Virus record (IMG/VR): IMGVR_UViG_2711768008_000012
Source of the DNA: a virus
Taxonomy: Duplodnaviria > Heunggongvirae > Uroviricota > Caudoviricetes
DNA: 4,532 nucleotides
Direction: 5' to 3' (one strand)
The position numbers and the translations under genes were made by a program. The notes below the pieces were generated by a model, which ran no database searches, had not been told where the DNA came from, and saw only the letters and a program-made list of their open reading frames with translations. Of this stretch, positions 990-4,532 are shown in pieces (the stretch's first letter is position 1; each line of letters starts with the position of its first letter).

Positions 990-1145
990 TTACTTCCTGG
1001 ATTCGTAGTCTACGAAGACAGCGACCTCCGTCTGGCCGGTTCGGATTCGTACCTCACAGAGGTCTTTCCTCGTTACCAGTGCCGTCACTATGACGGTTAA
1101 ACAGATGACGATCAGGGCGATTAACATCGCCTTTTGCTGCTTCAT
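990..1145 (-). CDS. hokD: Hok/Gef-family type I toxin (51 aa), hokD/relF-like
   Basis: Translation MKQQKAMLIALIVICLTVIVTALVTRKDLCEVRIRTGQTEVAVFVDYESRK matches my recollection of E. coli HokD/HokC over the first ~44 residues (single TM helix, conserved RKDLCEV and TEVAVF). ATG at 1145..1143 with AAGGAG 9 nt upstream; TAA stop at 992..990. The 70-aa ORF in the track is an in-frame 5' extension from the ATG at 1202. Confidence 0.85.
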   Translation of the reverse strand: MKQQKAMLIALIVICLTVIVTALVTRKDLCEVRIRTGQTEVAVFVDYESRK

Positions 1146-1303
1146 AGCCTGCTTCTCCTTGCCTTTCGGCATGTAAGAGGCTAACCTACATGTGCAAAGC
1201 ATGAAATTGGCCTCAGATTAATGTTAAGCGTCTTGCCGGACGCGTAATGTTAACTGGGGCTTTTCTCTATCTGCCTTTTGGTGTTCATGCCTGAAGCAGA
1301 TAG

Positions 1304-1319
1304 CCTCAAGCACCCGCAG
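1304..1319 (-). promoter_or_regulatory. hok mRNA 5' element (tac-like) complementary to the 3' end
   Basis: Lies immediately downstream of the predicted transcription start and pairs with 917-933 (see that feature). Confidence 0.45.
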
Positions 1320-1372: not shown

Positions 1373-2059
1373 TCACTCCTTCTCTTCTTTACCGTAGTGG
1401 AGTTGACCAATTTTGATAAGAGGGCGTCCCTGAGATTTGCGGTGTAGATTGGTATCGCGCAGAGAATACACACAGCCACAATATTCCTGCTGATAGAATT
1501 TTTCGCGCTTGCTGATTTCAATCATACGGGACGAGCCGCCCTGCTTGCGCCAGTTATAATCCCAGTACACCATGCCCGGATAATGCGCGACGGCTCGCCG
1601 CCCACAGTCGTTAACCTGCTGCATATTTTTCCAGCGTGAAATGCCCAGTGAACTGCTGATCACACTGAAACCATTTTCAGCGGCGTACAGCGCTGTCCGC
1701 TCAAAACGCATGTCAAAACACATGGTGCAACGGATCCCTCGTTCGGGCTCCCATTCCATTCCTTTGGCTCGTTCAAACCAGTTGTCTGTGTCGTAATCAG
1801 CATCAATAAACGGCACGCCGTGTTGTTCAGCAAAGCGAATATTCTCATCCTTACGAATTAAATACTCTTTCTGAGGATGAATGTTCGGGTTGTAGAAAAA
1901 GATGGTGTAGTCGATTCCCGAGGCCTGAAGCGCCTCCATCACCTCACCGGAACATGGAGCACAGCAAGAGTGCAGTAGTAGTTTGTTTGCCCCGTTTGGG
2001 AGCTCCAATTTGGGCCGTTTGAAATCAGCAACTGTCATAAATATGTTTATTGGGGTCAT
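1373..2059 (-). CDS. queH: DUF208 / QueH-like protein (epoxyqueuosine reductase family), 228 aa
   Basis: Contains the motifs I associate with QueH/DUF208: [11 protein letters not shown] near the N-terminus, [23 protein letters not shown], and [11 protein letters not shown] near the C-terminus. ATG at 2059..2057 has no obvious Shine-Dalgarno; an internal ATG at residue 8 is an alternative start. Confidence 0.75.
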
Positions 2060-2206
2060 AAAAATATCAAAGAGTGTAGCATTAGAACGGGGCTATCGGA
2101 AACAGATGTGTGACTGCTCCCCGCCCTTTCGGGTGGTCTCCTGATGATTTGAGGGTGCAGAAATCCCTCCGGTTAAGGATTAAATTTTTAACAGTGCTAA
2201 ATTTAA

Positions 2207-2620
2207 TTATTCAGTTCTGGATTTTGTCGCCCTGCGTATCCGCGCTTTCGCGTTACGCTCAATCTGTATCAGCTTTTCTATATTTCTCCGCCTTTCCTGT
2301 TCCTCCTGGCGCAATAGCCTTACATCATCTGCCAGTCTGGTTTCTCTTTTTGCCACAGAGAGCATCCAGTCAAACGGCTCCACAACCGCACCGCAGATTT
2401 TACAGCGGACCTGACGCTCTTTTTCGTCAACCCGTACAGAGGCGTGATGGCAATATGGTCTTTCCGATGGCTCATAAAGAAAATTAACCTGATTACGAGG
2501 GTCATCCTCTTTTACCGGAAATAAAACGATATTGCTTAACTCATCTTCTGGTTTTATTTCCATGCTCCTCTCCTTTGATGCGAATGCCAGCGGTAATTGA
2601 AGCCTGATAGCTAATTTCAT
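2207..2620 (-). CDS. hypothetical Zn-ribbon-like / basic coiled-coil protein (137 aa, or 118 aa from the ATG at 2563)
   Basis: ATG at 2620 abuts the stop of the upstream gene (TGAATG), with AGGAGG 11 nt upstream. The internal ATG at 2563 has a better-spaced GGAGAGGAG site. Protein has an acidic N-terminus, a CHH-x13-CxxC cluster (YCHHASVRVDEKERQVRCKICG) and an Arg/Glu-rich helical C-terminus. No family recognised. Confidence 0.55.
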   Translation of the reverse strand: MKLAIRLQLPLAFASKERSMEIKPEDELSNIVLFPVKEDDPRNQVNFLYEPSERPYCHHASVRVDEKERQVRCKICGAVVEPFDWMLSVAKRETRLADDVRLLRQEEQERRRNIEKLIQIERNAKARIRRATKSRTE

Positions 2621-3043
2621 TCACAGTATCGCCTCCTGAAAATTACCCTGATAGAAAGCCAGTACACGCTGCATAGCTTCGCTCTTCCGGCACTCGCGAC
2701 AGATTATATTCAGGCGCCTGTCGTAGCGGCGTATTTCTCCGTCAGGTAATGACCAGATAAGGTCCGGATCAACAACAACCGGTTTCCTCACCTTTACTCT
2801 CGAGAGTTTTTTGCGGGCGCTTTGCCAGTCCTTGCGAGCCTGTTCAGACGGGAATAAGCCGTAGCCAGAATTATATACATCACCACTTGCGACCAGTTCT
2901 ATGCATAAGCGACCGACAGACGCACGACTGATACCTGTTTCATCTGACAACTGCCGAATCGTGACCCGACCGTCCTGATGCACGAGTTCCACAATTCGCG
3001 TCTTCAGTTCTTCCCGCTGTTCGGGAGTAAAAGGTTTCGCCAT
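2621..3043 (-). CDS. Ren-like protein (lambda Ren family), 140 aa
   Basis: C-terminal ICRECRKSEAMQRVLAFYQ resembles the lambda Ren C-terminus as I remember it (KECRQSAAMKRVLAVYG), and the N-terminal half looks like a winged-helix/HTH segment. Sits directly downstream of the helicase-loader gene as ren does after P in lambda. AGGAGG 5 nt upstream of the ATG at 3043. Confidence 0.55.
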   Translation of the reverse strand: MAKPFTPEQREELKTRIVELVHQDGRVTIRQLSDETGISRASVGRLCIELVASGDVYNSGYGLFPSEQARKDWQSARKKLSRVKVRKPVVVDPDLIWSLPDGEIRRYDRRLNIICRECRKSEAMQRVLAFYQGNFQEAIL

Positions 3044-3057
3044 AAATCCTCCTGAAA

Positions 3058-3744
3058 CTACTTAACAACCCTCGAATGGCTAACATTCGGACGCCAGCTC
3101 TCCCAGTTAAAATTCACCCAGCGCCCGCCGTNNNNNNNNNNNNNNNNNNNNNNNNNNNNNNNNNNNNNNNNNNNNNNNNNNNNNNNNNNNNNNNNNNNNN
3201 NNNNNNNNNNNNNNNNNNNNNNNNNNNNNNNNNNNNNNNNNNNNNNNNNNNNNNNNNNNNNNNNNNNNNNNNNNNNNNNNNNNNNNNNNNNNNNNNNNNN
3301 NNNNNNNNNNNNNNNNNNNNNNNNNNNNNNNNNNNNNNNNNNNNNNNNNNNNNNNNNNNNNNNNNNNNNNNNNNNNNNNNNGATAGCTGCCGCTAAGTGA
3401 TTCTTCCCGGTACCAGGTTTTCCGCTGAACGCAAAATTTGTACACCCGGTCATCAGTTCATCGGCGATGGATTTCGCCTGGCTTAACGCGTATCGCTGGC
3501 CGTCGTTCTGCACCTGGTAATTCGCAAACGAGCATTTACGGTGCAACGGCTGGATGCCTGAGCGATTCAGAATTTTTTCCACCCGCAACTGGCGATTCAG
3601 GCGGTTGATCTCCTCGCTACGTTTCTGGCCTTCAGCAAGTTGCCACTCGCGCCACTCCGCTACCGTTCTGAATGGGGCGGTTACATGTGGCGGGGTCAGT
3701 CGGCGGATGCGTTCCAGAACGCCGCCTGTCGCAATATTTTTCAT
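3058..3744 (-). CDS. dnaC: DnaC-like replicative helicase loader (AAA+ ATPase), interrupted by the N-run
   Basis: The N-terminal 121 residues align closely with E. coli DnaC as I recall it, up to the Walker A motif (NRSGIQPLHRKCSFANY...FSGKPGTGKNHLAAAI). The C-terminal tail after the gap (RWVNFNWESWRPNVSHSRV) matches the DnaC C-terminus (LWVIFNWDSYRSRV). The central ~84 codons are N (3132-3381). The ATG at 3744 is 6 nt downstream of the upstream gene stop. Confidence 0.85.
   Translation of the reverse strand: MKNIATGGVLERIRRLTPPHVTAPFRTVAEWREWQLAEGQKRSEEINRLNRQLRVEKILNRSGIQPLHRKCSFANYQVQNDGQRYALSQAKSIADELMTGCTNFAFSGKPGTGKNHLAAAIXXXXXXXXXXXXXXXXXXXXXXXXXXXXXXXXXXXXXXXXXXXXXXXXXXXXXXXXXXXXXXXXXXXXXXXXXXXXXXXXXXXXGGRWVNFNWESWRPNVSHSRVVK
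3132..3381. other. 250-nt run of N (assembly gap or masked sequence)
   Basis: Directly visible in the sequence; it lies inside the DnaC-like CDS and its content cannot be assessed. Confidence 0.99.
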
Positions 3745-3750
3745 GGTCCG

Positions 3751-4427
3751 TTACCCCCTGAAGCCTGGCGGGATCGCACTGTCCGGCAACGAGACGGTGT
3801 TAACCTGTCGGAGCAACGTCTCAGGCCGAACACCTTTCGGCGCGAACAGGCCCTGGTATTCATTGGCGATGCTGTGTCGAATCACCTGCTCAGGTGTAAA
3901 ACCCTGCTGACGGAATTTTTCCAGTTCCCGTATCGCCCCGTTAGCGCCCTGCTCCGTTCGAATCGGTTTTCGCAATGCCTGTCTGAACCGGACCCACTCA
4001 TGCCAGAGTGTTTCCGGCAACCAATCGGGCAGCTCAATAGCCTCCGGCTCGAATTTTTTAGACGCTCGTTTTTGGCGAGGGGGAGATCAGTATTTAGATC
4101 TTCCTCTTCCTCTTCCTCTGGTAACGCTTTTTGATCCGTTTGTGTAACGCTGGCAGCGTTACCTTTTCGTTTCAGTTCGCGTATTTTTGTTACTCGCTCG
4201 TTTGTAACCGCCCGTTTTTTTTAGAGCTTTTTCCGTTATGACGTTCAAAGTTAGGTAGAGAAAGCCCTCCGTCATTTTCGACCAGCCATCCAACCTGAAT
4301 TAACGCATCAGCAAAACCAGACATAAAAGTGATGCGATCTATTGCACTTTTTGTAACGCCGCGAGCGTTACAATCTGCATTACCGTCTATCATTTGTTGA
4401 TCCGCCCATGCCCAGAAGCGAATAACC
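3751..4427 (-). pseudogene. phage replication-initiator gene with DnaT-like C-terminal domain; 5'-truncated by the IS and frame-disrupted
   Basis: The C-terminal segment (frame of ORF 3751..4020) ends ...VNTVSLPDSAIPPGFRG, matching the E. coli DnaT C-terminus as I recall it (...NTVSEPDSQIPPGFRG). The N-terminal segment (ORF 4190..4453) is in a different frame. An intermediate frame encodes a plausible acidic linker (…ALPEEEEEEDLNTDLPLAKNERL…). The apparent start at 4453 is a GTG inside the IS terminus, so the true 5' end is missing. Confidence 0.6.
4099..4119 (-). repeat. (GAGGAA)3 hexanucleotide repeat encoding a poly-Glu stretch
   Basis: Plus-strand tcttcctcttcctcttcctct; on the minus strand GAG GAA x3 in the linker frame of the replication pseudogene. 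Confidence 0.8.
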
Positions 4428-4532
4428 TGAGGTAGCCTGAGTTTAACGGACACTCCTTCCTGAAATAGAATGGCATCAGAAGGAGCTAATAATGAGCAGA
4501 AAAACCCAACGTTACTCTAAAGAGTTCAAAGC
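4428..4532 (+). mobile_element. left end of an IS3-family insertion sequence (IS600-like), continuing past the window
   Basis: Starts with TGAGGTAGCCTGAGTTTAACGGACAC, i.e. a TG terminus and a GGACAC motif about 20 nt in, as in IS3-family inverted repeats. About 64 nt later comes AGGAG then ATG at 4492 encoding MSRKTQRYSKEFK, a typical IS3-family OrfA N-terminus (compare the IS911 KRNFSAEFK pattern). Confidence 0.65.
4492..4532 (+). CDS. IS3-family transposase OrfA, N-terminal fragment (runs off the window)
   Basis: ATG at 4492 with AGGAG 7-8 nt upstream; translation MSRKTQRYSKEFK. Confidence 0.6.
   Translation, partial: MSRKTQRYSKEFK

Follow-up and report, generated by a model that had tools for sequence, protein, structure and literature searches.

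A widespread prophage gene for a zinc-ribbon, putative coiled-coil protein recurrently adjoins Ea22-like genes

The zinc-ribbon gene and its start codon

We analysed a 4,532-nucleotide (nt) stretch of viral DNA, IMG/VR record IMGVR_UViG_2711768008_000012, which we call the window. On its minus strand, between a DUF977 gene and a gene for the epoxyqueuosine reductase QueH, lies a small gene encoding a protein with a predicted zinc ribbon and a long, putatively coiled-coil helix. This zinc-ribbon gene has been catalogued before, by RefSeq as a hypothetical protein and by PHROG in the family phrog_1621, and is functionally uncharacterised. We found that its conserved unit is shorter than the open reading frame (ORF) that carries it, and that its recurrent partner is an Ead/Ea22-like gene, neither QueH nor DUF977. 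The gene and its immediate flanks comprise the following features.

2207..2563, minus strand: zinc-ribbon coding sequence (CDS) of 118 amino acids (aa), beginning MEIKPEDELSNIVLFP and ending RIRRATKSRTE and a stop; a phrog_1621 member, delimited by profile, RefSeq, orthologues and the ratio of nonsynonymous to synonymous substitution rates (dN/dS)
2564..2591, minus strand: conserved 28-nt leader GCTGGCATTCGCATCAAAGGAGAGGAGC with the Shine-Dalgarno sequence AAGGAG at 2570-2575, unchanged or almost unchanged in every E. coli-type context
2592..2620, minus strand: initial 10 codons of the longer, 137-aa ORF, outside the conserved gene unit; a relic mini-ORF read in the wrong frame
2541..2624, minus strand: 27-codon Ead/Ea22-like relic (VNEISYQASITAGIRIKGEEHGNKTRR, then a stop), recognised from its translation and from a tail common to longer upstream ORFs
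2121..2206, minus strand: 3' flank that travels with the gene, defined by downstream homology breakpoints

A 137-aa ORF is open at 2207..2620 on the minus strand, as the initial annotation reported, but the conserved gene begins at ATG 2563. The true product is the 118-aa protein made from ATG 2563, not a 137-aa protein from 2620, because the phrog_1621 profile, RefSeq annotation, orthologues and homology breakpoints all agree on this start. The profile begins at M20 of the 137-aa ORF, which is ATG 2563. RefSeq annotates the 118-aa form as the 357-nt gene WP_001343130.1, a 'hypothetical protein' placed between DUF977 and QueH in E. coli FDAARGOS_943, the complete genome nearest to the window (99.7% nucleotide identity). 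Orthologues of Klebsiella, Kluyvera, Serratia, Erwinia, Yersinia and other genera align from the same codon, and for 35 of the 93 copies at the loci that we fetched, similarity to the window at the nucleotide level ends at 2591-2593. The leader is the sole conserved upstream sequence, with its AAGGAG well spaced from ATG 2563, and doubles as the 3' end of the upstream Ea22-like frame. Beyond these 28 nt the sequence diverges and in-frame stops appear in many contexts, Ea22-linked ones included.

The DUF977 stop TGA (2623-2621) does run straight into an ATG (2620-2618), giving the TGAATG junction from which translational coupling to a 'Ren-like' gene had been proposed. That coupling does not hold: the position of ATG 2620 is GTG or GTA in many relatives at DUF977-linked loci. 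Both 2620 and 2563 had been credited with a ribosome-binding site. The site at 2563 is genuine and has a good Shine-Dalgarno sequence, but the AGGAGG assigned to 2620 (2632-2637) lies 11 nt from that ATG and 7 nt from GTG 2624, the start of the relic ORF.

The 118-aa frame is under strong purifying selection. Compared with 78 other alleles, it shows a dN/dS of ~0.02-0.1 at dS up to 0.3; the window ORF is intact, and the same allele occurs on at least 1000 contigs. From this selection on the frame, together with its conserved features, we conclude that the gene is real.

Protein family and architecture

The protein belongs to a recognised group of phage families. The 137-aa ORF matches phrog_1621 with an E-value of 5.1e-56 (189 bits; residues 20-136 against positions 1-120 of the 134-position profile) and the 118-aa form with 3e-56 (residues 1-117). 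Each of the 150 homologues in our alignment hits phrog_1621, and for 146-147 the other two families, phrog_8538 and phrog_4865, give matches as well. The initial annotation could place the protein in no family; there is indeed no characterised family to place it in, but phrog_1621 is a confident home, though one with no known function. When 1.84 billion cluster representatives were searched with a profile, 1601 clusters, defined at 50% identity, reached E<=1e-3, of which 256 also passed E<=1e-10, and all the distant members that could be placed lie on phage contigs in arrays of small early genes. A degenerate DNA pattern for ERNAKARIR retrieved enterobacterial copies only. We considered the family as small-terminase-like, since one 186-aa homologue lies directly upstream of TerL, but dropped this because three other long-form homologues lie in ordinary early-gene arrays.

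The description of a small zinc-ribbon and coiled-coil protein of unknown function survived searches for a family of defined function. Scans of Pfam and NCBIfam returned no family above threshold, and the defence hidden Markov models of PADLOC-DB 2.0 no match at E<=1; when 64 homologues were scanned with the protein against Pfam, NCBIfam and PADLOC, only sub-threshold zinc-ribbon and coiled-coil noise appeared (ZapB, DivIC, EzrA and SMC-like). Sequence-profile searches of the PDB, with profiles of 32 and 150 sequences, gave nothing below E 0.04, and all matches were coiled coils. Foldseek found none at E<=0.001 in the PDB or BFVD. A literature search by accession, PHROG identifier, peptide strings and DUF977/LygF returned nothing on the protein.

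Three parts of the protein stand out, numbered here and below on the 118-aa form.

2516..2533, minus strand: N-terminal motif N-I-V-L-F-P, residues 11-16, consensus [VI][VI]xFP (ΦΦxFP) after an acidic run
2393..2452, minus strand: zinc-ribbon core, residues 38-57, C38-x-H40...C54-x2-C57, with two beta-hairpins; ligand columns invariant or at least 90% conserved
2213..2377, minus strand: long single helix, residues 63-117 (55 residues), from a predicted local distance difference test (pLDDT) of 92-98 and tables of heptads and conservation

The C-H-H-x13-C-x2-C cluster that had been pointed out is present, at residues 38-40 and 54/57 (57-59 and 73/76 of the 137-aa ORF), but its first histidine is variable, and the conserved putative metal ligands form the pattern CxH...CxxC. 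At C38, H40, C54 and C57, the 150 homologues vary little or not at all, down to ~25% identity. Over ~25-100% identity, the other conserved columns are R50, D/E62-P-F-D and L98-x-R-x-E-R-N-x-K-A-R-I-R. In the N-terminal motif, positions 12 and 13 are hydrophobic in 98-100% of 64 diverse homologues and position 15 in 95%, mostly as F; with a deep alignment the pLDDT of this motif rises to 70-85.

AlphaFold2 predicts a two-hairpin ribbon with strands 43-46 and 51-54, followed by the helix at 63-117, and its mean pLDDT increased from 73.8 with 32 sequences to 84.6 with 150. The charged, helical C-terminus of the initial annotation is thus borne out as a predicted single helix with pLDDT >90. Along it runs a 3-4 heptad repeat from ~67 to 116, with hydrophobic positions at 67, 70, (74), 77, 81, 84, (88), 91, 95, 98, (102, which is E), 105, 109, 112 and 116. 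Such a continuous repeat on a long modelled helix would class the protein as a coiled coil. The conserved E102 occupies heptad position a, and conserved K/R residues occupy b, c, e and g. Conservation peaks in the half of the helix at 84-110, which is almost invariant and includes ERNAKARIRR (102-111), with ERNxKARIR near-invariant in the family. Among Enterobacterales sequences only 45-60% identical overall, 18 of these 27 positions are invariant, on all helical faces, placing the helix end under tighter constraint than the ribbon. Judged from the sequence, the protein is dipolar: residues 1-37 carry a net charge of about -5 and residues 91-118 one of about +8.

The Ea22-like partner, mosaic boundaries and prophage setting

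The usual gene order puts the zinc-ribbon gene after an Ead/Ea22-like gene, or after another gene with the tail AGIRIKGEEHGNKTRR, and the two overlap by 23 nt. In 115 of the 117 different contexts of E. coli type, the upstream ORF closes with the tail AGIRIKGEEHGNKTR, then R or G and a stop. Of these tail-bearing ORFs, 46 exceed 100 aa and 51 are the 27-codon form found in the window; 26 of 110 unique upstream ORFs match the Pfam family Ead_Ea22 (PF13935). An order of PAPS reductase, Ea22-like gene and zinc-ribbon gene is shared by phage ArgO145, whose copy is 99% identical, and Enterobacter phage Tyrion, whose copy is only 33% identical. Natural in-frame fusions of Ea22-like and zinc-ribbon proteins also exist, although they are rare (P0002, P0292, P0295 and P0298). 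This pairing is newly noted; the gene and its family had been catalogued before.

In the window the partner has collapsed. The 27-codon mini-ORF starts at a GTG that overlaps the DUF977 stop (GTGA), 7 nt after AGGAGG, and its conserved tail AGIRIKGEEHGNKTRR terminates 23 nt inside the zinc-ribbon CDS. Its N-terminus, VSEI(N/S)YQA, is the usual start of Ea22-like proteins, and a deletion junction is visible in paired loci (VSGIDYQ/ASITAGIRI versus VSGIDYQ/ELAAANAFL, the slash marking the junction). Because of the shared tail, the PF13935 matches, the N-terminus and this junction, we read the mini-ORF, on sequence comparison, as an Ea22-like gene with an internal deletion. ATG 2620 itself arises from AAT-G, the second codon of the mini-ORF, read in another frame; collapse of the Ea22-like partner therefore produced both the misleading TGAATG and the apparent 137-aa ORF. 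Any coupling would instead run from DUF977 through GTGA to the 27-codon ORF and on to its stop 23 nt inside the zinc-ribbon gene. For annotation, the lesson is that the collapse of an upstream gene left two artefacts here, the apparent 137-aa ORF and its 'TGAATG coupling'.

Several further observations concern this junction. The 27-codon mini-ORF recurs in 51 distinct contexts beside widely divergent DUF977 alleles. The same AGIRIKGEEHGNKTRR tail over the zinc-ribbon gene is carried by upstream genes with unrelated N-termini, both Ea22-like genes and 'RseB domain-containing' genes (MQLFSRRQ...; E. coli H102, H103, H110 and H111, and L048:4532-5023), which suggests recombination junctions within their 3' ends. 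At one IMG/VR locus (L023, near 4816-5000) the mini-ORF reads VSKISYEVVNKNWPPS before the sequence diverges into TGAAGTGGTCAACAAAAACTGGCCACC, which we take to be an inverted repeat of the IS3 family; this suggests an insertion sequence (IS) between DUF977 and the zinc-ribbon gene. Two types of fusion were seen. One joins DUF977, whose stop is in frame with ATG 2620, to the 137-aa ORF through loss of the TGA (278 aa; P0286-P0290), and the other joins an Ea22-like N-terminus to the whole zinc-ribbon protein (201-264 aa; P0002, P0004, P0292, P0294, P0295 and P0298). We also considered the protein as a detached C-terminal domain of the Ea22 of Shiga toxin (Stx) phages (933W L0065), and dropped this because comparison with 933W Ea22 and with the gene downstream of it revealed no similarity.

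We found the CDS in 1679 of 5426 complete E. coli genomes (31%), which hold 2135 copies, at most 5 in any one genome; carriers include CFT073 and Stx2a phages. It is thus among the more widespread and tightly constrained E. coli prophage genes of unknown function. Its surroundings vary: the adjoining DUF977 allele can be anywhere between 54% and 100% identical in amino acids, with the zinc-ribbon protein constant at 97-100%. Downstream, homology breaks at 2121 in 49 loci and at 2159-2163 in 27. Judged from these boundaries, the gene is a mosaic cassette that begins at 2592 and ends at 2121 or, in other loci, at 2159-2163. The 3' flank at 2121-2206 was weighed as an RNA element or terminator and dropped, as it contains no significant RNA structure (fold z-score -1.08) and no terminator on the gene's strand.

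QueH had been suggested to act with the zinc-ribbon protein as a module, and the co-occurrence count refutes this linkage: the DUF977, zinc-ribbon, QueH arrangement occurs in only 2 of the 5426 complete genomes, against 1679 with the gene, and in many genomes DUF977 is followed directly by QueH. The majority of zinc-ribbon gene copies have other small genes downstream, and QueH comes next only at those fetched loci whose DUF977 is 99-100% identical, which places them in the same lineage. QueH is therefore an unrelated cassette that adjoins the zinc-ribbon gene by chance in the window lineage. The QueH cassette (1373-2120, minus strand; L016 3461-4126) is itself mobile, with its junction at 2121.

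Some prophage early regions contain two family copies (L039, L050, L061, L062, L083 and L084), and some of these pairs are near-identical. At other double-copy loci, the second copy is ~33% identical and follows a DUF551 (EaA-like) gene. Copies with 90-97% identity to the E. coli gene or to its flank are filed under a Collinsella metagenome-assembled genome (L008), Ursidibacter (L012), Campylobacter sp. (P0276) and the Actinobacillus phage vB_Apl-pPE4; these most likely reflect contamination or mis-binning, not real host range.

The other genes of the window are these.

2621-3043, minus strand: DUF977 gene, also labelled 'Ren-like' or LygF
1373-2059, minus strand: QueH gene
990-1315, minus strand: complete hok/sok type I toxin-antitoxin locus
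3058-3744, minus strand: DnaC-like (ydaV-type) loader gene, partly masked by N
3751-4020 and 4190-4453, minus strand: fragments of an O-like replication gene

Every gene of the window lies on the minus strand, and together they represent the early-right region of a lambdoid (Rac/Qin-type) E. coli/Shigella prophage remnant. From upstream to downstream the order is O-like fragments, DnaC-like loader, DUF977, zinc-ribbon gene, QueH, hokD with sok RNA, a phrog_340 gene and a truncated DUF1367. We sought a promoter and a terminator on the strand of the zinc-ribbon gene and found neither; the gene is transcribed within the rightward early operon, with no promoter or terminator of its own. The HokD-like ORF (990-1202) matches PF01848 (E 1e-22), and the sok antisense RNA family RF01794 matches 1140-1315 with 117 bits. 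A run of 240 N (3142-3381) covers the middle of the loader gene. The O-like gene (3751-4453) is split between two reading frames, with a run of eight A near 4215-4222, and is probably a frameshifted pseudogene, consistent with a defective prophage remnant. Termini of IS600, an IS3-family element, occur in direct orientation at both window ends (1-107 and 4428-4532), so that two IS600 copies bracket a 4.3-kb prophage fragment. The left copy truncates DUF1367, the final 15 codons of ORF 61-456 being IS-encoded, and the right copy truncates the O-like gene.

Candidate functions and known systems

We tentatively favour, at slightly less than even confidence, an early phage protein that would form a coiled-coil oligomer, use its basic helix end as the working surface and pair with Ea22-like proteins. 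In this model, a small head would comprise the CxH/CxxC zinc ribbon, the ΦΦxFP segment as its probable cap, and the first, hydrophobic part of the helix. A putative coiled coil of ~6 heptads would form a stalk through which the protein oligomerises. The basic, almost invariant helix end (L-x-R-x-ERN-x-KARIR) would most likely clamp nucleic acid, either DNA or, like an arginine-rich motif, RNA, and less likely a host protein. The zinc-ribbon protein would modulate phage development soon after infection or induction, plausibly together with, or downstream of, Ea22-like proteins. Ea22-like proteins are reported to be pro-lysogenic by a mechanism of action that is unknown (PMC8614690). If the pairing reflects a joint function, the zinc-ribbon protein would be a candidate for the influence of exo-xis/Ea22 on the lysis-lysogeny decision, and hence on the induction of Shiga-toxin phages.

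Several points weigh against this model. Conservation of the shared tail is partly imposed by the ribosome-binding site and first codons of the zinc-ribbon gene itself. The link to Ea22 is not universal, as other genera have NinG, YbcO, RusA, DUF551 or a small unknown gene upstream, and most Ea22-like genes, including those of lambda and 933W, have no such partner. The mechanism is drawn from predicted architecture, our searches having found no solved structure or characterised homologue. Acidic proteins are also ligands of basic helices, which leaves nucleic acid as only the likeliest of several options, and the basic-region signature of basic leucine zipper (bZIP) proteins is not matched. 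A bolder proposition, to which we give little credence, is that phrog_1621/8538/4865 constitute a class of their own among phage factors for development or host control, namely coiled coils headed by a zinc ribbon whose 'reversed bZIP' or arginine-rich helix end would bind a specific DNA or RNA target (or block a conserved host machine). As the effector partner of Ea22-like proteins, such a factor would offer a molecular handle on the long-unexplained pro-lysogenic exo-xis/Ea22 system.

The best-surviving alternative, unlikely in our view but still a serious one, is a host-takeover or anti-defence inhibitor working through protein contacts only, in which the coiled coil and basic end would block a host enzyme or immune sensor and ΦΦxFP would dock. 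It would suit a gene that always lies in dense arrays of small early accessory genes of very different phages, that has the sharp mosaic edges of a mobile cassette and that encodes a short conserved linear motif within a variable N-terminus. The gene also occurs in the exo-xis and nin regions, which hold host-modulating genes (PMC8614690). On the other side, no target can be named, and the spacing of ΦΦxFP, compared by eye only, is unlike that of beta-clamp (QL[SD]LF), SSB-tip or TonB-box motifs. No PADLOC model matched, although that library covers defence systems, not anti-defence proteins. Uniform, strong conservation across phages of very different hosts also favours a universal ligand such as nucleic acid or phage machinery.

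We consider it improbable, more so than any reading above, that the protein modulates transcription by binding RNA polymerase in the manner of the TFIIB ribbon or of TraR and lambda Orf73, its acidic N-terminus and zinc module docking on the enzyme. The sole sequence or fold resemblance does point to the TFIIB ribbon (PF08271, 21.1-21.5 bits, E ~2e-4; Foldseek top match 1pft, E 0.4, probability 0.63, 37 columns). In addition, the order of acidic N-terminus, zinc module and C-terminal helix is that of TraR, and the gene shares a genome region with Orf73 in some Stx phages. However, the PF08271 score falls below the 29-bit gathering threshold, with 7 of 64 homologues reaching E<=0.01, and the Foldseek E-value is insignificant, indicating a generic zinc-ribbon resemblance only. 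Neither the zinc-finger family nor the ligand pattern of DksA/TraR is found, as detailed below, and conservation is strongest in the basic helix end, not in the acidic N-terminus.

Very improbable is the composite proposed by the initial annotation, in which a 137-aa protein made from 2620 is coupled through TGAATG to DUF977 and forms a module with QueH. The junction and the open frame are there, some submitters annotate 132- or 137-aa forms, and other members of the window's prophage lineage have precisely this arrangement; the genome counts, the GTG or GTA at 2620, the in-frame stops just upstream in Ea22-linked contexts and the onset of homology at ~2592 and of the profile and orthologues at M20 all stand against it. 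Least probable of all, to the point of being negligible, is a decaying or non-functional ORF: the IS600-flanked, truncated and frameshifted surroundings are those of a defective remnant, but the ORF is intact, its allele is identical on at least 1000 contigs and the family is under strong purifying selection.

Set against known systems, membership of phrog_1621, phrog_8538 and phrog_4865 is clear, and since these families are unannotated for function, it implies no mechanism. The TFIIB-type zinc ribbon (PF08271, Zn_Ribbon_TF; PDB 1pft) is the best, though weak, match by sequence and fold, sharing a two-hairpin ribbon of similar length, predicted in the present protein. It differs in its first knuckle, which is CxH here and not CxxC/H, and in what follows the ribbon, here a putative coiled coil and not the B-reader and cyclin folds.

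TraR/DksA proteins, including lambda Orf73 of the exo-xis region, are zinc-finger proteins that bind the secondary channel of RNA polymerase. Orf73 is likewise a small early phage protein, and the acidic N-terminus, putative zinc module and C-terminal helix come in the same order and, in some Stx phages, from the same region. The differences are the absence of a PF01258 match at E<=0.1 and of DxxDxA, a ligand pattern of C-x-H-x13-C-x2-C in place of CxxC-x17-CxxC (C4), and a most conserved part that is the basic helix end.

With bZIP proteins and arginine-rich motifs (GCN4; the P22 and lambda N peptides), the protein shares a continuous predicted helix that combines a heptad zipper with the conserved N/K/R-rich ERNAKARIRR, a stretch that presumably resembles the 'NAKTRR' of the P22 N peptide locally. 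No homology to bZIP or arginine-rich motif proteins was detected. The basic stretch lies C-terminal to the zipper, the reverse of the bZIP order, and of the signature N-x2-A-A-x2-[CS]-R, only the alanine at +3 fits N104-A-K-A107-R108-I-R-R-A112.

Ead/Ea22-like proteins differ from the zinc-ribbon protein in carrying PF13935, which is matched only by its upstream neighbours or fusion N-termini and not by the protein itself. The two are alike in being early proteins with coiled coils, predicted in the case of the zinc-ribbon protein, and in sharing neighbourhoods, where the zinc-ribbon gene is often the overlapping downstream gene and is occasionally fused in frame.

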